A DNA stretch of 64,000 nt from an uncultured Lachnospiraceae bacterium (GCA_910577175.1 CAJTLU010000013.1:4171-68170); one strand, 5' to 3'. Shown: positions 1,456-10,730, counted from the stretch's first letter. Translations and numbers: made by a program. The notes: generated by a model not told the origin, from the letters alone.

Positions 1456-2676
1456 ATGAAGGATATATTCAAAAAAGAGATATTTCGTGTGTTCAGTGAC
1501 AAGAAAATGATTTTTTCCTTGTTCATCCTGCCGGCAGTTCTGATGTTTGGTATCTACGGCCTGATGGGTGTAATGGTAAAAAACATGGTTTCCGATGTGG
1601 AAAAGCATGTTGCGATTGTTTATGTGCAGAATGCGCCGGAGGGCTTAAAGGACTTAATCGGACAAAGCGGGTATCTGGAAACGGCGGAGGTGACATATCT
1701 TGCCGCAGATGCCGCAGCAGAGGAAATCCAGAAAATCAAGGACGATATCCTGACAGGGAATGTACAGCTGATGGTGCAGTTTGAGACAGACTTCCTTGCC
1801 AAAGCACAGAATTATAAAAATGCAGGCGACCCGATTCCGGAAGTAACCGTATGCTATAATTCCACGCAGAACTATTCCTCTTCGGCAAGAGGAAACTTTA
1901 ACAGTATGATTCTTGCACCGTTGCAGACCTCGCTTCTGCAGAACAGATTCGGCAATCTGGATTTGCTGACCGTATTTAATACGCAGGAGGAGCTTATCAT
2001 CAATGAAGAAAAGGCAAACGGAGAGTTTCTGGCAACTATGCTTCCGTACCTGATTACGTTTATGCTGTTTGCGAGCGCTATGGGACTTTGCGTAGATGCA
2101 ATTGCGGGAGAAAAAGAGCGTGGGACGATGGCAAGCATGCTGCTTTGCCCGGTAAAGCGCAGTTCTATTGTATTCGGTAAGCTGTTCGGACTTTCTGTGC
2201 TGTCTTCACTTTCTTCTATCGTATATGCGGTTTCTATGATTCTGGCGATGCCGATGATGATGGGCGGAATGGGGGAAGAGACCGGACTTGCAATGAATAT
2301 TTCTCTGTCGCCGGTACAGGCGTTAGAGCTGTTTGCACTTATGGTGAGCCTTGTTCTGATTTATGTTGGCGCACTTTGCCTTGTATCCGTATTTGCAAAG
2401 AATGCTAAGGAGGCGAATGCCTATGTAATGCCGTTGTATATGATTGTGCTGGTACTCGGTCTGATGACGATGTTTAAGAGCGGTATGGAAACCTCGCAGA
2501 CAATGTATGCAATTCCGGTATACGGGACGGCCCTTTCCATTCAGGGAATTATAACAAGTGAGATTACCTTTCTGCAGTTTGGCAGCAGCGTGCTCAGCAA
2601 TCTGCTCTGTACGGTAATCATCGTCATTGCTGTGGCAAAGGTATTTAATAATGAAAAAATTATGTTAAACGCATAA
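1456..2676 (+). CDS. ABC-2 family permease (NatB-like)
   Basis: 406 aa: N-terminal TM, large loop, C-terminal cluster of TM helices. SD aaggagga. Starts directly after the ATPase stop. Confidence 0.8.
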   Translation: MKDIFKKEIFRVFSDKKMIFSLFILPAVLMFGIYGLMGVMVKNMVSDVEKHVAIVYVQNAPEGLKDLIGQSGYLETAEVTYLAADAAAEEIQKIKDDILTGNVQLMVQFETDFLAKAQNYKNAGDPIPEVTVCYNSTQNYSSSARGNFNSMILAPLQTSLLQNRFGNLDLLTVFNTQEELIINEEKANGEFLATMLPYLITFMLFASAMGLCVDAIAGEKERGTMASMLLCPVKRSSIVFGKLFGLSVLSSLSSIVYAVSMILAMPMMMGGMGEETGLAMNISLSPVQALELFALMVSLVLIYVGALCLVSVFAKNAKEANAYVMPLYMIVLVLGLMTMFKSGMETSQTMYAIPVYGTALSIQGIITSEITFLQFGSSVLSNLLCTVIIVIAVAKVFNNEKIMLNA

Positions 2677-2691
2677 AAGAGAGTAAGAAGA

Positions 2692-2765
2692 GGGGCTGTC
2701 ACACGAAGCGCAGCCCCGGCTTACAAGCGGCGGATATTTTCCTACTGCAAGGAGATCCGCCGCTT
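2692..2765 (+). terminator. Two consecutive GC-rich hairpins downstream of the ABC operon
   Basis: ggggctg/cagcccc (2692-2717) and an 11-bp perfect stem aagcggcggat/atccgccgctt (2725-2765). No clear U tract. Confidence 0.4.
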
Positions 2766-2898
2766 AATCATACGTCCATACCATGTCCTTTCTTCCTTAC
2801 AGCTTTTTCTGCTTCACACTTTTTTGTGTTTTATCCAGTATATCATAAAATTGTACAGATTCCATCAAATTTCGAACAGTCTCACAACATTTTATTTC

Positions 2899-2932
2899 AT
2901 AATATTTGCTGCGATAGAGCAGCAAATATTAT
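2899..2932. promoter_or_regulatory. C-box-like operator: 14-bp perfect inverted repeat
   Basis: ataatatttgctgc-gataga-gcagcaaatattat. A third GCAGCA half-site sits at 2950-2955 inside the promoter spacer. Located just upstream of the HTH gene. Confidence 0.6.
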
Positions 2933-2939
2933 ATTTTTG

Positions 2940-2968
2940 TTGCATTTATGCAGCAGGTGTGCTATACT
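2940..2968 (+). promoter_or_regulatory. Sigma-A type promoter of the HTH-methylase operon
   Basis: -35 TTGCAT (2940-2945), 17-nt spacer, extended -10 TGcTATACT (2960-2968). Confidence 0.6.
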
Positions 2969-2989
2969 ATCCAAAATAGAGGTGATGAT

Positions 2990-3349
2990 ATGGCTAAAAC
3001 ACTTGGACAATATCTGAGGGCAATAAGGGAACAAAATAAATTAAGCACAAGAGACGTGGAAAAAGAGACCGGCATAACAACTTCACAATTAAGCCGCTTA
3101 GAATGCAGCCACACACGCAATCCGTCTCCCGTTGCTTTAAAAAAACTGGCTCTATTATATAACATAAAACTAATAGACTTGTTCCAAAAAGCAGGATATC
3201 TGGACTCCCAAGACGTAGATTCTTACATGGAATCCTGTTTCAAAGGCATTGAAAAATTAGACCAGGAAGACAAAAAACAAATACAGAATCAAATTGACTA
3301 TTTGATTTTTCAGCATGAAAAAGAAAGAGAGGACAGAAATGATTTATAG
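2990..3349 (+). CDS. XRE-family HTH regulator, probable controller (C) protein of the R-M island
   Basis: HTH_XRE signature LSTRDVEKETGITTSQLSRLE. SD agaggtga before ATG 2990. 3' end overlaps the methylase start. Confidence 0.8.
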   Translation: MAKTLGQYLRAIREQNKLSTRDVEKETGITTSQLSRLECSHTRNPSPVALKKLALLYNIKLIDLFQKAGYLDSQDVDSYMESCFKGIEKLDQEDKKQIQNQIDYLIFQHEKEREDRNDL

Positions 3350-4403
3350 ATTAGGAGAACTGTTCTGCGGCCCCGGCGGAATTGCGTGGGGAGCCCTTAA
3401 TGCCGATATCGGGGATGATAACTATAAAATTGTCCACCAATGGGCAAATGACTATGACAAAGACACCTGTGAAACATACCGGTATAACATCTGCAGCGAC
3501 AATCCAAAGAGCGTTTACCACAAAGACATCCGTGAATTTAACTTGGAAAATCTGCCAGAAATTGACGCCCTGGCTTTTGGATTCCCGTGCAATGATTACA
3601 GCGTAGTCGGAGAGCAGAAAGGCATGGACGGCGTCTTCGGCCCCCTCTATTCATATGGAGTAAAAGTATTAAATATATACAACCCTATATGGTTCGTTGC
3701 AGAAAATGTAGGCGGACTCCGAAATGCCAATGACGGAAAAGCCTTTACCAAAATCATTGACGAACTGAAAAAAGCAGGAACCCACGGCGGATATACTGTC
3801 GTCCCGCATTTATATAAATTTGAGGAATACGGAATCCCCCAGGCCCGCCACCGGATTATCATAGTAGGCATCCGGAAAGATATTGACGTTGCATACCATG
3901 TTCCTTCTCCGGAACCATATGCGGACATTGACAATACCTGCCGGAAAGCAATAGAAGACCCGCCCATCCCGACAGACGCCTTTAATAACGAACTGACAAA
4001 ACAGTCTAAAACCGTCATTGAAAGGCTGGACCATATCCTTCCCGGACAGAATGCATTTACTGCCGACCTGCCGGACGAACTGAAACTGAATGTCCACGGC
4101 GCGAAAATCAGCCAGATATACAAACGGCTGGACCCTGATAAACCTGCATACACCGTCACCGGAAGCGGCGGCGGCGGAACCCATATTTACCACTGGAAAG
4201 AATCCAGGGCCCTGACAAACCGGGAACGCGCCCGCCTGCAGACCTTCCCCGATACCTATAAATTTATCGGGAGCAAAGAAAGCGTCAGAAAACAGATCGG
4301 CATGGCCGTTCCATGCAAAGGGGCGAAAATCATATTTGAAGCCATCCTGAAAAGTTTCGCCGGCATCGAATACCCCAGCATTGAACCAAACATCAATGAA
4401 TGA
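3339..4403 (+). CDS. DNA (cytosine-5)-methyltransferase
   Basis: All C5-MTase motifs present: I ELFCGPGG, IV GFPCNDYS, VI AENVGGL, VIII QARHRIIIVG, IX RERARLQTFPD, X IGMAVP. SD agagagga before ATG 3339. Confidence 0.95.
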   Translation: MIYRLGELFCGPGGIAWGALNADIGDDNYKIVHQWANDYDKDTCETYRYNICSDNPKSVYHKDIREFNLENLPEIDALAFGFPCNDYSVVGEQKGMDGVFGPLYSYGVKVLNIYNPIWFVAENVGGLRNANDGKAFTKIIDELKKAGTHGGYTVVPHLYKFEEYGIPQARHRIIIVGIRKDIDVAYHVPSPEPYADIDNTCRKAIEDPPIPTDAFNNELTKQSKTVIERLDHILPGQNAFTADLPDELKLNVHGAKISQIYKRLDPDKPAYTVTGSGGGGTHIYHWKESRALTNRERARLQTFPDTYKFIGSKESVRKQIGMAVPCKGAKIIFEAILKSFAGIEYPSIEPNINE

Positions 4404-4410
4404 CCTTATA

Positions 4411-4440
4411 GTAAAACCGGAGCTTTAGCCCCGGTTTTAC
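4411..4440. terminator. Bidirectional hairpin terminator between convergent M and R operons
   Basis: 10-bp perfect stem gtaaaaccgg/ccggttttac with a 10-nt loop. Confidence 0.6.
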
Positions 4441-5396
4441 TACACAGAAAAATCCATATAATACTGCTCATCATCCAGCTTATAAAACGTAACATCTGTA
4501 CGTCCATATTCCTCCAGATCACTTCTCCAAATATAAGCGCCATTTGCCAGCCCCAGCCGGTTCCTGAAATACTCCCCAAGCTGTGCATTACTAAGCGGTG
4601 TAGTAATTGCCTTATTCCCCTGCTGTTCCACCCTCAATATCAGCTGATGGCCGTCATCCGTAACAACCGTAAAATGCTGTTTATTCAACGGGAAAAAGCC
4701 CGTCCGAACCATCGGCGCAGGAAGCGGTATGTACGCCTCATTCTTATTCCGCCTGCTTCTCTGCCCCCAGTTCAGCCCCGATTTCGTCCCCACTTCCCCG
4801 TTTTCCGAAAGCAGAGAAAGCGTAATTTTTTCTATATTTTCACCTGACAGACTGCCGACCGGCTTATTTTCCATATCCAAAACACTGTGCGTGGGATACA
4901 GCACCACATATTCCTCAACTTCGGCATGATTACAGAATATCGTATCATTCTCTACACTGCAGTAATACCGGTACGCTTCCAGGGCATCACACTCCACCAT
5001 ATATTCCCTGCGCTTTTCCCCAAATGCACTCTGCGTAAAATTTGCCGAACCTGCAAATGCTGCAACCGGCTCATCCCCTTTAAGCCAGACATACACTTTC
5101 GCATGTACCGGCGCAGAATCATACACATAACTGCACTGATAATGCGCCACCTCCTGGGGCATCTTCTCCTTCTGCAGCTCCTTAAATCCCTCATGGACAG
5201 CAATGCTGAGGCCGTCAAAAGGAACCATTCCCACAATCAAAGATATGTCTATAGGCCCGGATTTAAACTCCTTCAAATTCTTGATCAGCCACGAAGCCAT
5301 GTTCGGCGTTGCGTACCCTGATAAAATACACAGCCTGTCCGCCCCCGTGCGGAGCGGTTCAAACAATACCCTTCTCGCCAGTTCTGAATACTTCAT
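4440..5396 (-). CDS. PLD-family restriction endonuclease with C-terminal B3-like DNA-binding domain (NgoFVII/CglI R-protein type), copy 1
   Basis: Single HKD motif HAKVYVW...GSANFT. C-terminal FTVVTDDG...GNKAI...LGEYFRNRLGL...EEYGRTDVTF. Confidence 0.8.
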   Translation of the reverse strand: MKYSELARRVLFEPLRTGADRLCILSGYATPNMASWLIKNLKEFKSGPIDISLIVGMVPFDGLSIAVHEGFKELQKEKMPQEVAHYQCSYVYDSAPVHAKVYVWLKGDEPVAAFAGSANFTQSAFGEKRREYMVECDALEAYRYYCSVENDTIFCNHAEVEEYVVLYPTHSVLDMENKPVGSLSGENIEKITLSLLSENGEVGTKSGLNWGQRSRRNKNEAYIPLPAPMVRTGFFPLNKQHFTVVTDDGHQLILRVEQQGNKAITTPLSNAQLGEYFRNRLGLANGAYIWRSDLEEYGRTDVTFYKLDDEQYYMDFSV

Positions 5397-5425
5397 GGCA
5401 CCTTCCTTTCAAACACATAATACCA

Positions 5426-7279
5426 TTATTCACTGTCATCTGTTATATCATAATACACCATCTTATCCGGCAGTTTGATATTCGGAACCCAGATTTTCTC
5501 TCCGCCCCAGCCTTTTTCTCCTGTCATCTGATACATCGTAAGAACAATCTTGTCCGTGACAGATGCGCCTAACTGCCAGTCATTAGGAGACAGCAGCGCA
5601 CCCGTACCCTTCGCCACGTTCCTGTTCCTCCTGACAATCAGAACCCCCTGGCCTGCCGGTTTTTCAGCAAGCACCATATCAATAATAGAACGGAAAACAC
5701 TTACCTTAAAATCATCCTCCGACTTGATATGGGAAAAAACCTCCTGCATCAGACGAAGGCTCACCTGATAACACGGCTGTGAATCATCAAATGCCTCCAG
5801 AAGCCGGTCAATGTCAGCAATCGTATCGTTCTCCGGCGAATATGGATAATAATTTGTCCCCCCTGAAATCATGGCCAGCTTCTTATTATCCAGAACATTC
5901 TTCCTTGTCGGATTCAATCCCTCCGGATAATAAATCTTCACATCCGCAGTTCCCCTCTCCACCTGGGAAATAATAGAATTATTCGTTGCATTGATATCCG
6001 CAAACAGCTTATACAAATGCTCGTCAATAAACACCTTCATAAGCCCGGCATCCCTGTCATAGCCGAACATGCGGCTGTGCTGCCACATCGTATCTGCCTG
6101 CGGCTTCTTAGCCGTCCTGGTATAATAAATCGTCTGCAGCCCCGCAAAAGTAACACCCCGTCCAAGCGTATTCCCGCCGATAATCACATTAGAGCCCGAT
6201 GCATAATCATCACTGCCTACATCGGAACTTCCGTTCATGACCAGAACCTTAATTTCATCATTTTCCAGCAGTTTCTGTATAAAACCCAAAACCTCTCCAA
6301 ACGGCTTCTTCTCAAATTTAACCGGGTTCAGCTGCTCATACCACTGCCTGGCCTGCACAGTAAATCCGTCATCCCTGCACCTTTCCTTGAAATCCCCCAA
6401 AACCTTAAACACATCCTGCTGGTATTTTCCATGCACCGCCTTCCGAACACTGGGATGAATTAAAAAATTTGCCACCCCTTTTCCCGCTGTCAGCATGATA
6501 CCCGATACCACCAGATGATGCATTAACGCCTCTTCCAACGGATCTCTTAAAGAATCTATATAAGAAATACACTCCCCGGCTCCTTCCGCCGGAAAGAAAA
6601 AGTCTCCCCCAAGATACCCGTTTCCCGGCCGGAAATAATAAGCAAAATATGGGTGCCACCCTGATGACATTGTCTGCAGCAACAGCGCCTGCGGCGTCCC
6701 CGTAACCTGCAGATAAATACTGCACGCCGATCTCGCCTTAATATCATCCAGATACCTGTTGATAGAAGACCTGCTGTTTCTGTTGACCATCGTATTCAGA
6801 GAAGCCGCATCTGCCTCATCATCAATAATGAACAGTGGGTTCCCCCTCATAAACCCCGTAGAACCCAGAATATTAGACCACTGCTTCAAAGTCCTTACAT
6901 TCTTCTTTAACACAATAATGGCCGGCTGCATCAGACAGTTCTCTGCAAAAATCTCCGAATCATATTCGTCACATATACAGAATCCTTCCAAGTCCTCCCT
7001 CACCCGCTCAATGGTCTGCTGCTGCAGTATGACATTATCTGTTGTCAAAATCAAAAATACCGGAAAACCCAAATCCGCCGCCACAGAAATCACGCCGAAC
7101 ATCTGCCCTGTTTTTCCGGACTGCACATTTCCAAAGAGAAGCCCCACCTCATGCTCACAAAAAGAAAACCCTTCTAAATATTTCGGCGCGATATTATCCA
7201 CCGTTTCCTGGATAGAATCAGCTAACTGCTTATTCCCCCGCCCCTCTATCTTCTTCAAGTACGTTTCAAGATATTTCAT
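5426..7279 (-). CDS. Z1-domain P-loop ATPase (N-protein type of CglI/NgoAVII restriction enzymes)
   Basis: Walker A GNVQSGKTG, Walker B/DEAD-like FIIDDEADAAS, about 617 aa. Start set at ATG 7279 with SD ggaggcaga. Overlaps the upstream gene by 14 nt. Confidence 0.8.
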   Translation of the reverse strand: MKYLETYLKKIEGRGNKQLADSIQETVDNIAPKYLEGFSFCEHEVGLLFGNVQSGKTGQMFGVISVAADLGFPVFLILTTDNVILQQQTIERVREDLEGFCICDEYDSEIFAENCLMQPAIIVLKKNVRTLKQWSNILGSTGFMRGNPLFIIDDEADAASLNTMVNRNSRSSINRYLDDIKARSACSIYLQVTGTPQALLLQTMSSGWHPYFAYYFRPGNGYLGGDFFFPAEGAGECISYIDSLRDPLEEALMHHLVVSGIMLTAGKGVANFLIHPSVRKAVHGKYQQDVFKVLGDFKERCRDDGFTVQARQWYEQLNPVKFEKKPFGEVLGFIQKLLENDEIKVLVMNGSSDVGSDDYASGSNVIIGGNTLGRGVTFAGLQTIYYTRTAKKPQADTMWQHSRMFGYDRDAGLMKVFIDEHLYKLFADINATNNSIISQVERGTADVKIYYPEGLNPTRKNVLDNKKLAMISGGTNYYPYSPENDTIADIDRLLEAFDDSQPCYQVSLRLMQEVFSHIKSEDDFKVSVFRSIIDMVLAEKPAGQGVLIVRRNRNVAKGTGALLSPNDWQLGASVTDKIVLTMYQMTGEKGWGGEKIWVPNIKLPDKMVYYDITDDSE

Positions 7280-8414
7280 CTTCTGCCTCCTGCTGATGCC
7301 TGCTCTCCGGAAGGAAAGATAGCATCCATACTTCCAGCTCCGTACCATCCTCCGTCTTCGTCACAATATCTGTCTTTGTCAGCGTAATCGTATCCCGCCC
7401 GTATTTATTCAGCATCTTATGTGTAATAACACCTTTCCCACCCAGGTCACTTTCCACCCGATTCACCGGCTCCACCAGGCCGGCCGCTACAAGACGCCCC
7501 TTGATCCAGCGCCCCATAATCTTCAAATCGTCTTTTGAATACAAATTTTTGTTATTCTGCCCGCATGTCCAGGCCTGGAACTTCCAGCCGTCATCCGTAA
7601 CCGCCATAAAGGGTTGCTGATGCAGGGGATAGCCCGGCAGGTCCCTGATAGACTTACTAACCACCATTTCAATCTCCCACCAGACACGCTTTCTTCCGCT
7701 CGCATAGCAGACATTGATATTGGAACCCCTCATAGACTGATCATTCTCATCCTCCGGCACTTTCAACGGAAGCTCAAAGGAAACCTCCGTCATCCTCTTC
7801 TTATAAGCGTCCACCTCCTCCGGCGTAACCTTGGAAACAAATTCCTGATCCACCAGCGCCCGGTTGACCTCCCGAATCAATGGCACATCCCGCAGGTCAG
7901 CAATATTAGCCGAACACTTCGGAAGCATAATATCCCTGACATGGGCAGAAATCTCCTGCAGTTCCCCCGGTTCCTCCGTCACTGCTGACAATTCATACTG
8001 GCGCAGATTGGATGCCTCCAGCTTGACTGCTCCCAGATTATGCGAACCAACCACAGCAGAAAACGGCTTTCCATTCTTATAAAAAGCATACACTTTCCCA
8101 TGATATTTAAACGCCCTCACCAGACGCACTTCACCAATCCCGCGCCCGGTCCAGTCCTCATTCAAAGCCGCCGCTACATTATATGTACCCTCCGGCATAC
8201 CCTCATGATAATACATACCGATTGTCAGACAGACCCTCTTTATTCCAGCCTCGTCAACCAGCCCCTGCAGCTCTTTTAATGCCGCCTTCGACACATACCC
8301 CACTGCAATATCTATTTCATCCGCCTCACGCACAGCATCCATAAAATAATCTATAAAAGCTGTCTGCCCGTCTCCCAGCTTTAACGGGAGCATATTAGAA
8401 TATAATAACCGCAT
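7266..8414 (-). CDS. Second, divergent PLD-family nuclease with B3-like C-terminal domain, copy 2
   Basis: HKD motif YHGKVYAF...VGSHNLG. C-terminal FMAVTDDG...NNKNL...MGRWIKGRL...NKYGRDTITL is paralogous to the 4440-5396 product. Start set at ATG 8414 (SD ggagaaggg). Confidence 0.75.
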   Translation of the reverse strand: MRLLYSNMLPLKLGDGQTAFIDYFMDAVREADEIDIAVGYVSKAALKELQGLVDEAGIKRVCLTIGMYYHEGMPEGTYNVAAALNEDWTGRGIGEVRLVRAFKYHGKVYAFYKNGKPFSAVVGSHNLGAVKLEASNLRQYELSAVTEEPGELQEISAHVRDIMLPKCSANIADLRDVPLIREVNRALVDQEFVSKVTPEEVDAYKKRMTEVSFELPLKVPEDENDQSMRGSNINVCYASGRKRVWWEIEMVVSKSIRDLPGYPLHQQPFMAVTDDGWKFQAWTCGQNNKNLYSKDDLKIMGRWIKGRLVAAGLVEPVNRVESDLGGKGVITHKMLNKYGRDTITLTKTDIVTKTEDGTELEVWMLSFLPESRHQQEAEDEIS

Positions 8415-8477
8415 TTTCCCTTCTCCATTTTCATTAGTCACTGCAATTATAGCAGACATACCCGGCACTTTCTACCA

Positions 8478-8957
8478 TCACTCATCATCCACCCCATAAA
8501 ACGTCCTGTCTCCCTGCACGTTCAACTCAAAAATGCATTCTTCAATCACCCGGATACACTCCCCGCAGTTCTTTAAAATATCCTTTCCCCAAAACCGGAT
8601 CACTGTCCAGCCCATGAACATGAGAGCCTTATTCACCTCATCATCCCGCTCCATATTCCTCAATATCTTTTTCTTCCAATACTCCGGATTGTTTCCCGCC
8701 TCCAGACGCGGCTTCAAAACCTCCCAGTCCTTCCCATGAAAAAATTCACTATCACAAAAAATCGCTATCTTATACTTTGTCAGCGCAATATCCGGCTTAC
8801 CCGGCAGGGCGGCATAATTCTTCCTATACCGAAATCCCCTTGCCCACAGCTCTTTCCGCAGCATCACCTCAATGCTGGTATCACTGGACCTGATATTCCG
8901 CATATTCTTATGCCGCTGTTCCTTCGTAAGATTGTCCACTTCATCAGCCCCAAACAC
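8478..8957 (-). CDS. vsr: Very short patch repair endonuclease
   Basis: Classic Vsr block RSSDTSIEVMLRKELWARGFRYRKN...LPGKPDIAL...IAIFCDSEFFHG. Exact start uncertain (GTG 8957 or GTG 8939). Confidence 0.9.
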   Translation of the reverse strand: MFGADEVDNLTKEQRHKNMRNIRSSDTSIEVMLRKELWARGFRYRKNYAALPGKPDIALTKYKIAIFCDSEFFHGKDWEVLKPRLEAGNNPEYWKKKILRNMERDDEVNKALMFMGWTVIRFWGKDILKNCGECIRVIEECIFELNVQGDRTFYGVDDE

Positions 8958-8988
8958 AACATAAACAACTTTTAACTATTTCCATCAC

Positions 8989-9381
8989 CTATCCAAGATA
9001 CTCGATTTCAAGGCTGTTAGGAGAAGTAAAAGTCACCCTGACTTCCCCGCCTACTTGTGCGCCAACGCTTCTGTACCAATTACCTATGCCCTTTAGATTT
9101 CCTTCCTCCGCAAACTGCTTTGCATAAACATCCCCTGCACTGCTGCACCCCTGCGCAAGCAAAATACCAGAATAACGTCCATTTACAGCAACACAGCGGT
9201 ACCTGGGATTTGTTGTAGGATGATTGTCATTAAATATACCAAACCTCTCTGCATACTGCCGCGGTATCTTAATATAACCTTCCCCATAAATTGGATCACG
9301 GGTATTAGTATAGCGGTATGTACCCCACCCTAAATGGGACGGCTTCAAAGTAACTGTAAATGTGTCTCCTGCTCTTGGCAT
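8989..9381 (-). CDS. 130-aa stand-alone protein resembling the B3-like DNA-binding domain of the two PLD nucleases
   Basis: SD aagggggg. Blocks LGWGTYR...GEGYIKIPRQYAERFGIF...RVTF parallel GLNWGQR...EAYIPLP...GFFP...DVTF of the R-protein C-terminus. Eye alignment only. Confidence 0.45.
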   Translation of the reverse strand: MPRAGDTFTVTLKPSHLGWGTYRYTNTRDPIYGEGYIKIPRQYAERFGIFNDNHPTTNPRYRCVAVNGRYSGILLAQGCSSAGDVYAKQFAEEGNLKGIGNWYRSVGAQVGGEVRVTFTSPNSLEIEYLG

Positions 9382-9583
9382 AAAAATTCCCCCCTTGTAC
9401 TTTCAAAGTTTAATTTTTTCAACAGACCGTTTTCTTCTATAAATATTATCGGCTCGAAATCATGTTTTAAAAATCACATAATTATAAAAGTTCATGTCTT
9501 TTTACAGTTCTTCCCTTTTATTATACCACAAAAAGAAAATAATTGCTTCATCTTGCTAAAATTCTAAATGGTCCCTAAGTATT

Positions 9584-9656
9584 GGTCAGACACTAGAACT
9601 CCCTAGGGGCCTGACCAGCCTTAGAGGAAGTCCAGTGAAGCGTTGCGTCTGCAAAA
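9584..9656. repeat. Stem-loop plus 36-nt conserved box, copy 1 (copy 2 at 43334-43413)
   Basis: ggtcag...ctgacc stem followed by ttagaggaagtccagtgaagcgttgcgtctgcaaaa. 30/36 identical to 43378-43413. Confidence 0.6.
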
Positions 9657-9708
9657 TCAGATAGTGCGCAGTCTCCGGAGTGTAAGGGTGTATATAAAAT
9701 GTAGAAGT

Positions 9709-9996
9709 TCAAGGCTTCCGGTCCGGAAAGAGCGTGACGTCAAGCATTTTGTTTTCCTGTGCGGCGTCTTTTAAGACCGTAAGGAAGCGCTCGCCGTAGC
9801 TTCCAGTGCAGGAAAGCAGATGCTCTGTGTAGGTAACGGTCAGGAAAAGCGGATGTGTAATTTCACACAGGCAGTCATGCAGGGCATCCAGGTTTTTCCC
9901 ATAGTGGGCAGGAAGCTCCAGCTTGTTCGCAAGATAATCGTGTAAGGCTTCTTTGGAAGTCATTTTGTTTCCGCTGAGTGTGACGCGCTGCTGCAT
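9709..9996 (-). CDS. Barstar-family ribonuclease inhibitor
   Basis: LELPAHYGKNLDALHDCL matches the barstar core (LALPEYYGENLDALWDCL). SD aaggaga. Directly downstream of the RNase gene. Confidence 0.9.
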   Translation of the reverse strand: MQQRVTLSGNKMTSKEALHDYLANKLELPAHYGKNLDALHDCLCEITHPLFLTVTYTEHLLSCTGSYGERFLTVLKDAAQENKMLDVTLFPDRKP

Positions 9997-10037
9997 GGGA
10001 TTCTCCTTCTGGCGTTTGCCCCCTGTTTCGGGGCTAC

Positions 10038-10730
10038 CTAATATAGTTTCGTAAAGGTCTTATAATGGTCGTCTGTGTAGTAAATCAGGCCGTCGTTGGA
10101 GTAGAGAATCCGTTCTGCACCGCGGTAGCCGCCACTATAGTTTACATCGCATTCATACCAGATGCGGCCCTTAGCCTCTGGCAGAAGTCCTTCGTAGTTG
10201 CCGAACCGGTTGCCGCCGATGGACATTTTGTCCGTAACGTCCCAAAGGTTTCCTTTTTCACTGTCCCAGCCAAGCTGTTCTGCCTCATTTTTGGTAATGT
10301 AATTGGAAGGCAGCTTATGGAAGTTATGGAGATAAGCTGCGACCAGCTCCGGGGAACTGTAAGTGCCGTCTTCCTTTACCAGCTCTTCTGGTGACTTTGA
10401 GGGTTCTGGCGTTGGCGTCTCTGTCGGCGCCGCCGTTACTGTAGAAGCGGGTGTGGTCAGTGCCTCTGTTGGCGCCTTCGTTGCCGTGGGGGCAGGCGGG
10501 GTCAGCGTATGTGCCGGGGCTTCTGTCGGTGCCGGAGTCACGGTATCGGAAGATGGGAGCTCCGGTCCTTTGTTCTCTGGCGCTTCTTCATCCAGCCCGA
10601 CCGCGAAAAGTCCGGAAAAAACCTGTTTCAGGTCTTTCCCGTTTGCCAGTGCAAGCACGACTGCAATCAGGAGAACAAGAATAGAAGCGCCAAGTCTTTT
10701 CTGCTTCTTTGTAAAAGTTGGTTTATTCAT
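10038..10730 (-). CDS. Secreted or membrane-anchored barnase-type guanyl-specific ribonuclease
   Basis: C-terminal 110 aa are collinear with barnase (HKLPSNYITKNEAEQLGW...GGNRF...RIWYECDVNY...RILYSNDGLIYYTDDHYKTFTKLY). N-terminal TM/signal and a Pro/Thr/Ala-rich linker. Confidence 0.9.
   Translation of the reverse strand: MNKPTFTKKQKRLGASILVLLIAVVLALANGKDLKQVFSGLFAVGLDEEAPENKGPELPSSDTVTPAPTEAPAHTLTPPAPTATKAPTEALTTPASTVTAAPTETPTPEPSKSPEELVKEDGTYSSPELVAAYLHNFHKLPSNYITKNEAEQLGWDSEKGNLWDVTDKMSIGGNRFGNYEGLLPEAKGRIWYECDVNYSGGYRGAERILYSNDGLIYYTDDHYKTFTKLY

Follow-up and report, generated by a model that had tools for sequence, protein, structure and literature searches.

Which kind of restriction system is encoded by a seven-gene island of an uncultured Lachnospiraceae bacterium, and how does it relate to the systems that have been characterised? 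The island lies in a 64,000-nucleotide stretch of DNA (GCA_910577175.1, CAJTLU010000013.1:4171-68170), which is called the window below and whose positions are used throughout. A preliminary description had placed the island in the class of CglI and NgoAVII, with a phospholipase D (PLD) nuclease, a Z1-type ATPase and a C5 methylase at its core, and had pointed to extra genes in a composition not known from a characterised system. Our analysis suggests that the island is likely a 5-methylcytosine (m5C) restriction-modification system of the CglI/NgoAVII/BceSIV class, in a composite form that recurs in other genomes.

The proteins are named as follows: C is the helix-turn-helix (HTH) controller, M is the C5 methylase, R1 and R2 are the 382-aa and 318-aa proteins that carry a PLD and a B3-like domain, H is the ATPase, and S130 is the 130-aa protein. 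All seven open reading frames (ORFs) were recovered in an ORF listing at the coordinates first proposed. The features of the island are given below by position and strand.

2767-9705, no strand: 6,939-bp island inserted between the genes for the ABC-2 permease and barstar, delimited by an empty site in a relative (L224)
2899-2932, plus strand: perfect 14-bp inverted repeat, predicted distal operator (C-box) of the C-M promoter, with GCTGC at 2908-2912 and GCAGC at 2919-2923
2940-2968, plus strand: C-M promoter as read from the sequence, with -35 TTGCAT at 2940-2945 and extended -10 TGcTATACT at 2960-2968
2990-3349, plus strand: C, HTH controller of the XRE type, 119 aa (Pfam HTH_19 2e-10, HTH_3 4e-9)
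3315-4403, plus strand: M, C5 cytosine methyltransferase, 362 aa (Pfam DNA_methylase 229 bits; PADLOC MTase_II 388 bits)
4409-4442, no strand: hairpin between the convergent M and R2 genes, from folding energy
4440-5396, minus strand: R2, second PLD+B3-like protein, 318 aa (Pfam RE_NgoFVII 172 bits, RE_NgoFVII_C 151 bits)
5426-7279, minus strand: H, DEAD-Z1 helicase-like ATPase, 617 aa from the ATG at 7279 (Pfam Z1 90 bits; PADLOC Helicase_II 839 bits, full length)
7266-8414, minus strand: R1, PLD+B3 nuclease, 382 aa from the ATG at 8414 (Pfam RE_NgoFVII 116 bits, RE_NgoFVII_C 88 bits; PADLOC REase_II 339 bits)
8478-8957, minus strand: Vsr, very-short-patch T:G mismatch endonuclease, 159 aa (Pfam Vsr 100 bits; NCBIfam TIGR00632 127 bits, cut-off 98)
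8989-9381, minus strand: S130, stand-alone B3-like protein, 130 aa, first gene of the leftward operon (predicted fold, no family match)
9382-9705, no strand: AT-rich region upstream of the leftward operon and, after it, some 135 bp of inserted DNA (9571-9705), from GC content and comparison with other islands

To our knowledge, no restriction enzymes other than those of the CglI/NgoAVII type combine a PLD nuclease with a DEAD-Z1 motor. We compared R1 and H with the structures of this class. R1 matched R.NgoAVII (4rct) over its full length (residues 4-349, E 9e-42), and residues 457-610 of H matched the C-terminal domain of H.CglI (6f1s, E 5e-18). Because of these two matches, R1-H can be regarded as a true CglI/NgoAVII-type pair, and on the sequence evidence the two proteins are true orthologues of the characterised R.NgoAVII and H.CglI. 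The catalytic motifs HGK and GSHN of R1 are present in the window, and HGK and GSxN are intact in all unique homologues (116 of 116). The translation of H contains the Walker A motif GNVQSGKTG and the motif DDEAD. The end of the R1 gene overlaps the start of H by 14 nt, which hints at co-translation.

The window therefore holds an R subunit (PLD HxK and B3), an H subunit (DEAD, Z1 and the CglI-type C-terminal domain) and a cognate C5 methylase, as the class has them, and the class assignment proposed at the outset is upheld. What differs is the three-gene M-R-H organisation of the class, in place of which seven genes, among them a convergent C-M pair, are found in the window. The leftward genes run in the order S130, Vsr, R1, H, R2 and the rightward pair is C, M; apart from the R1/H overlap, the gaps in the leftward run are 29-63 nt. 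The start of M overlaps the C gene, and an alternative ATG at 3339 means that M is possibly shorter. The HTH, C5 methylase, PLD+B3 (twice), Z1 and Vsr domains named in the preliminary description were all found again in Pfam profile searches, with which NCBIfam and PADLOC agree.

Enzymes of the CglI/NgoAVII class form an R2H2 complex (the digits here being subunit numbers) that has a single PLD active site and undergoes ATP-driven translocation (PMC4267653, PMC4267654, PMC5737866, PMC5861437). By analogy, an R1(2)H(2) complex of the island would recognise unmethylated sites via B3 and translocate on ATP, and the single PLD site of the R1 dimer would cut the DNA.

Here, we explored whether this layout is found elsewhere. 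H, R2 and S130 each served as a separate seed for collecting loci, with every species represented by one genome, and all loci were scored with hidden Markov models (HMMs) made from the seven proteins. Because the samples were seeded with the island's own proteins, the counts show recurrence and not frequency. The NgoAVII locus of Neisseria gonorrhoeae, scanned in a gonococcal record with the same HMMs, gave M>R>H only, which indicates that the additions seen in the window are real with respect to the characterised prototype. Among the H-seeded loci, those with H at least 55% identical had the order R1, H, then variably R2, Vsr and S130, followed by convergent M and C. Those with H at 40-52% identity had the canonical order M>R1>H, with or without Vsr, and R2, C and S130 were never present in them. 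The R2-seeded loci were either composites or simple M>R2 systems, with C and Vsr as variable members and without H or R1 (about 22 loci).

After removal of redundancy the samples comprised 41 canonical loci and about 60 composites; 17 of the latter contain the full set of seven genes, and the composites span dozens of species and many genera. On this distribution Vsr is an ordinary accessory of canonical and composite forms alike; it would repair the T:G mismatches left by deamination of m5C. A full-text literature search (CglI, NgoAVII, BceSIV, Bce14579I, NgoFVII and the Pfam accessions, with REBASE outside the search) returned the three-gene description only, with no two-R composite and no small protein. 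The idea that the composition is not known from a characterised system agrees with this literature, but the layout itself is not singular, as about 60 non-redundant loci have it. The composite occurs naturally and widely and is apparently an undescribed extension of a known restriction class.

A search of plasmids gave canonical M-R1-H loci on Lactobacillales plasmids and no composite. A Lactiplantibacillus plantarum plasmid (NZ_CP035557.1, L235) and about 10 similar Lactobacillales plasmids, which are conjugative, carry a canonical-type R1-H pair, a divergent dcm gene and then a DUF262 protein. On the Clostridium manihotivorum chromosome (L171) the H gene is split in two ORFs (HMM scores 515 and 474), and in another locus (L058) R1 and R2 exist only as fragments beside intact S130, M and C. 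Both look like decaying copies of the composite.

The preliminary description called R2 a second R paralogue; a second PLD+B3 protein is indeed present, but it is not a close or recent paralogue of R1, since the two share 27% identity only over 88 residues of the B3 domain. Its match to R.NgoAVII (4rct) reached only E 1e-3, and a PDB search with an E-value limit of 0.01 gave no sequence match between R2 and BfiI. PLD nucleases require the motifs HxK and GSxN (Pingoud et al., PMC4081073). We found that these are intact in stand-alone R2 proteins (HSK/GSANYT in 21 of 22 unique sequences). The 66 unique R2 sequences from composites are divided: HxK is intact in 23, HxN is found in 26, and in 17 the His is lost as well and GSxN is degenerate, so that 43 have lost the catalytic HxK. 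When the R2 groups are compared with one another, identity is 63-70% in the B3 domain and 32-49% in the PLD domain. The gap from H to R2 has a median of 14 nt and is at most 40 nt in 53 of 54 loci. In the window itself R2 has intact PLD motifs (HAK and GSANFT, which are those of its own clade) and a B3-like domain, and its sequence suggests that it can probably still cut.

Because R2 occurs elsewhere in M-R2 systems free of an ATPase, the island resembles the union of a C-M-R2 system and an R1-H module with a common methylase. R2 would then derive from an autonomous M-R2 Type II system that was later joined to an R1-H module using the same methylase. In composites the B3 domain is conserved and the catalytic motif is often lost, while the motif of R1 is intact; it follows that selection would retain the R2 protein and its DNA reader and not its active site. 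For the same reason, that the reader is kept while catalysis is lost, an auxiliary role in site binding is favoured. It is quite possible, and we tentatively propose, that the selected role of composite R2 is to bind target sites and thereby support R1-H; it could serve the translocating complex as a site-bound partner, for instance, or act as a roadblock for it.

An alternative is that the locus holds two independent enzymes with one methylase, R2 being an ATP-independent nuclease of the BfiI type that acts in parallel with R1-H and unlinked to it. This would readily explain the complete M-R2 loci that have intact HSK motifs and no H, the intact motifs of the window R2, and the occurrence of R1-H with M alone in canonical loci and in members of the composite clade without R2. 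However, independence would not account for a catalytic Lys or His lost in most composite R2 proteins whose ORFs stay full-length and whose B3 domain stays 63-81% identical, nor for the near-constant position of R2 directly downstream of H. We consider this alternative doubtful.

M and M.NgoAVII share 38% identity, which extends through the variable target-recognition region, and for this reason the target of M is likely a pentamer of the GCNGC type. M would methylate such a pentamer, and GCWGC is favoured over the GCSGC of CglI/NgoAVII. In R.NgoAVII, Arg285 contacts the central G of GCCGC in bidentate fashion (PMC4267654). The equivalent residue is Arg in 37 of 53 R1 proteins without R2 and in none of 63 with R2, and it is Tyr in the window. 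The lack of an Arg285 equivalent in composite R1 proteins fits a different central base, and GCWGC is suspected to be the target of the island.

The same pentamer appears in the promoter region of the C-M operon. GCTGC and GCAGC of the inverted repeat lie 11 bp apart (GCTGC-N6-GCAGC), and a third GCAGC (2950-2954) lies within the 17-nt spacer of the promoter. This three-site arrangement is kept upstream of C in nearly every C-bearing, diverged locus, while the flanking bases vary. Of 76 unique loci with C, 69 have a pair of the form GCWGC-N5-7-GCWGC upstream, compared with 2 of the 91 that lack C. Because the pair tracks C in this way, it is predicted to be the operator of C, and C would bind its own operator and autoregulate the C-M operon. 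The half-site is identical to the target of BceSIV, GCWGC (PMC4267653). We take this identity as a lead on specificity and not as proof, as it may be a coincidence. It is conceivable that the operator of C is itself methylated.

Two motifs are scarce in the 64-kb window. CTCAG/CTGAG is strongly depleted, seen 39 times against 75 expected (z -5.2), and GGACC/GGTCC had a ratio of observed to expected counts (O/E) of 0.69 (z -3.9). These may be traces of other restriction systems of the host.

The remaining addition, S130, required a different approach. Searches of Pfam, NCBIfam and PADLOC gave no family match for it, BLASTP showed no similarity to R1 or R2, and a PDB sequence search returned noise only; the link to B3 emerged only from comparing profiles and modelling the structure. 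An AlphaFold model, made from an alignment of 24 sequences, had a predicted local distance difference test score (pLDDT) of 88 and a predicted template modelling score (pTM) of 0.82. Its low-confidence loop (residues 24-32) is where the tip of a flexible N-arm is expected. With Foldseek against PDB, the top 29 matches of the model were all B3 or B3-like (probability 0.95-1.0), and plant B3, LlaJI.R1-N and BfiI-C were matched with probability 1.0 and template modelling (TM) scores of 0.5-0.57. Using hhalign, residues 13-115 aligned with the B3 domain of R2 (E 9e-4), and the motif S-x-L-x-W-G...R...Y-I-x-(I/L)-P is common to both. Relatives of S130 scored 17-24 bits against PF20731 (cut-off 23.8), which one of them reaches, and the window protein is below the threshold. 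The B3-like nature first ascribed to this protein is thus supported by a predicted B3 fold, although Pfam gave no match.

We found 229 homologues of about 130 aa; the family forms 208 clusters at 50% identity among 1.84 billion representative proteins and is present in many bacterial phyla. In the loci seeded with S130 (n = 70), a C5 methylase is nearly always within about 3 kb and Vsr is often beside it. The adjacent nucleases are of five types: PLD-B3, FokI-cleavage-domain, AlwI/BpuJI-type, HNH, and a Z1 + PD-(D/E)XK pair. In the H-seeded sample, S130 occurs in only 6 of about 33 composite-clade loci. Its invariant residues are unchanged whichever methylase group adjoins. Because the nuclease type varies and the C5 methylase stays, S130 is better viewed as a modular accessory of m5C systems than as a part of the CglI machine. 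The preliminary description had listed an orphan B3-like protein among the additions to a CglI-type system; the protein is there, but it is a general companion of C5 methylases and is not specific to CglI.

S130 is a predicted DNA-binding B3 module. As its conserved residues are constant across methylase and nuclease types, a role in reading the system's own target is disfavoured. S130 would most likely read a feature linked to cytosine methylation.

It was also considered that S130 is a sequence-specific regulator, either a B3 transcription factor or a reader of methylation at the system's own target, that delays the nuclease until methylation has taken place. Such a role would suit its DNA-binding fold with a conserved N-arm motif, its place at the head of the nuclease operon in the window and just upstream of M in several loci without C, and the C-terminal Tudor-like extension, of the PcrA/UvrD kind, in some relatives. 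It is nevertheless an unlikely one, because the conserved GCWGC operator tracks C and not S130, no common motif precedes S130, its operon position is variable (first, last or separate), and the constancy of its conserved residues extends across methylase groups and nuclease types. Binding of S130 to the three GCWGC boxes of the C-M promoter was rejected as a candidate, since the boxes follow C and are absent from S130 loci without C.

Some relatives of S130 are parts of larger proteins. Four proteins of about 640 aa (P0214, P0233, P0248 and P0264) have an S130-like B3 domain at the N-terminus of AAA_15/AAA_21 (OLD/ABC-type) ATPases, and these fusions suggest that the domain may act as a DNA sensor in other defence-type proteins. 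Three proteins of 224-239 aa (P0125, P0128 and P0147) have the S130-like domain and a C-terminal extension of about 100 aa with the motif HK-x-FG-x-G-x-V; the extension resembles the PcrA/UvrD Tudor domain (Pfam E 2e-3 for P0128). On a Priestia aryabhattai plasmid (NZ_CP024036.1, L234 6001-10118), S130 is directly upstream of an 890-aa Z1 protein and a PD-(D/E)XK protein, which are followed by an AlwI-family nuclease. This plasmid is mobilizable, and the S130 locus is near an integrase.

Taking R2 and S130 together, we can state a wider reading, which is possible but speculative: composite R2 would have turned from an autonomous nuclease into a non-catalytic site reader that licenses or positions R1-H, giving a three-component ATP-dependent enzyme, and S130 would be the founder of a new family of B3 readers that are free-standing and have been recruited to C5 methylase systems with many types of nuclease, perhaps sensing methylation state or deamination damage. 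That R2 is instead the decaying, functionless remnant of an older C-M-R2 system displaced by R1-H would suit the loss of catalytic residues in most composite lineages, the clade loci that lack R2 and the fragments of R1 and R2 in L058. It is nevertheless highly improbable, for the ORFs are full-length in about 60 non-redundant loci of many genera, the B3 domain is much better conserved than the PLD domain, the operon linkage to H is tight, and neutral decay is expected to give frameshifts or stops and not the selective loss of two residues.

Several points weigh against the composite CglI/NgoAVII-type interpretation or parts of it. That a complex forms, that ATP is needed and which sequence is recognised are all drawn by homology with the characterised enzymes. 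The assignment of GCWGC draws on one contact residue and the operator half-site, and avoidance of GCWGC in the 64-kb window is too weak to use (O/E 0.90, z -2.7). The motif of the window R2 is intact, so that here the protein is possibly a plain second, independent nuclease. Five composite-clade loci are without R2 (L078, L091, L093, L037 and L043), and R1-H is for this reason not strictly dependent on it. A search for a common operator upstream of S130 in 68 unique loci gave only ribosome-binding sites and ordinary promoters. The locus samples, seeded with three island proteins, do not provide unbiased frequencies. Finally, the hairpin at 4409-4442 is strong (-19.4 and -26.5 kcal/mol on the two strands, z-scores -6.4 and -7.7) and is likely a bidirectional terminator for both operons, as the preliminary description had it. 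It has no clean, canonical U-tract, and therefore we only infer the terminator role of a hairpin that is itself plainly present.

The island's origin can be read from related genomes. A close relative of the host (L224) has an empty site, with flanks 92% and 87% identical to the window; in it, window positions 2765 and 9706 are joined by about 38 bp, which form the permease-barstar gap. The bounds of the insert, 2767-9705, follow from this empty site. At 98% identity the core (2889-9385) is found in Lachnospiraceae bacterium JLR.KK009 (98% in L007/L149, where the flanks are unrelated), and other Lachnospiraceae genomes carry it at 82-95%; the window's flanks are missing from all of these. Judged by these comparisons, the island is a horizontal insertion. 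No target-site duplication, inverted ends or terminal repeats were seen at the junctions, and, in agreement with what had been noted before, no integrase lies within about 5 kb of the island. The AT-rich flanks noted before were likewise recovered, with GC contents of 0.38 at 2701-3000 and 0.33 at 9301-9600, against 0.45-0.55 elsewhere.

The neighbours are ordinary genes, which encode an Rce1-like protease, an ABC transporter, barstar and a barnase-like ribonuclease, a second ABC transporter and an M20 peptidase. Two hairpins lie 3' of the ABC-2 permease gene (2700-2766), GGGGCTG...CAGCCCC and AAGCGGCGGAT...ATCCGCCGCTT; the second is also kept in the empty-site relative, and the insertion starts directly after it. 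At the right end of the insert, 9571-9705 (about 135 bp) has no match in other islands, in the empty-site relative or in Rfam, and an Rfam scan of 2600-10100 at a permissive threshold gave no match either. Directly right of the insertion, on the minus strand (9709-10730), are barstar (95 aa, Pfam Barstar 73 bits) and a barnase-like secreted ribonuclease (230 aa, Pfam Ribonuclease 75 bits).

What the analysis adds is a widespread composite, an R2 from an autonomous lineage that tends to lose catalysis, S130 as a general companion of m5C systems, and a conserved GCWGC operator of C. How the motor activates cutting in CglI and NgoAVII is unsettled, and published work favours communication along the DNA between complexes. 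A natural extra PLD-B3 protein that repeatedly loses catalysis gives a handle on whether a stationary site-bound partner triggers a moving complex. S130 could reveal a general accessory activity of m5C systems. Such islands are also transformation barriers in gut Lachnospiraceae, and knowing the methylase and the operator would aid engineering.

Compared with known systems, the island is nearest to CglI of Corynebacterium glutamicum, NgoAVII of N. gonorrhoeae and BceSIV of Bacillus cereus. Like them, it has an R protein with a PLD domain at its N-terminus and a B3-like reader at its C-terminus, an H protein composed of a DEAD, a Z1 and a C-terminal domain, a GCNGC-family C5 methylase, and R and H genes that adjoin and overlap. 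The prototypes consist of three co-directional genes (M>R>H), whereas in the island M is convergent to the nuclease operon and is preceded by the gene of an HTH controller that has an operator of its own, H is followed by a second PLD-B3 gene, and Vsr and a stand-alone B3 protein are added. The central-base reader Arg285 of R.NgoAVII is replaced by Tyr in the R1 of the window.

R2 has the same two-domain build, with HxK and GSxN, as the stand-alone PLD+B3 Type II enzymes BfiI and BmrI and the partly characterised NgoFVII/AspCNI cluster. Those are stand-alone nucleases, and the R2 lineage likewise forms plain M-R2 pairs without an ATPase. Unlike the BfiI-type enzymes, R2 is embedded in the R1-H operon and is mostly catalytically degenerate in such operons.

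Type II systems controlled by C proteins include Esp1396I and PvuII, and in Kpn2I C acts on M. The island shares with systems of this type a small HTH gene of the XRE type, an operator in the form of an inverted repeat upstream of the -35 box, and one more site in the promoter. It differs in that the partner of C is M and not the nuclease, and in that the invariant half-site is only 5 bp (GCWGC). Finally, the fold predicted for S130 is the B3 pseudobarrel of EcoRII-N, BfiI-C, R.NgoAVII-C and LlaJI.R1-N; S130 is distinguished from these domains in being free-standing, with no catalytic or effector partner domain, and in forming a small family of its own.

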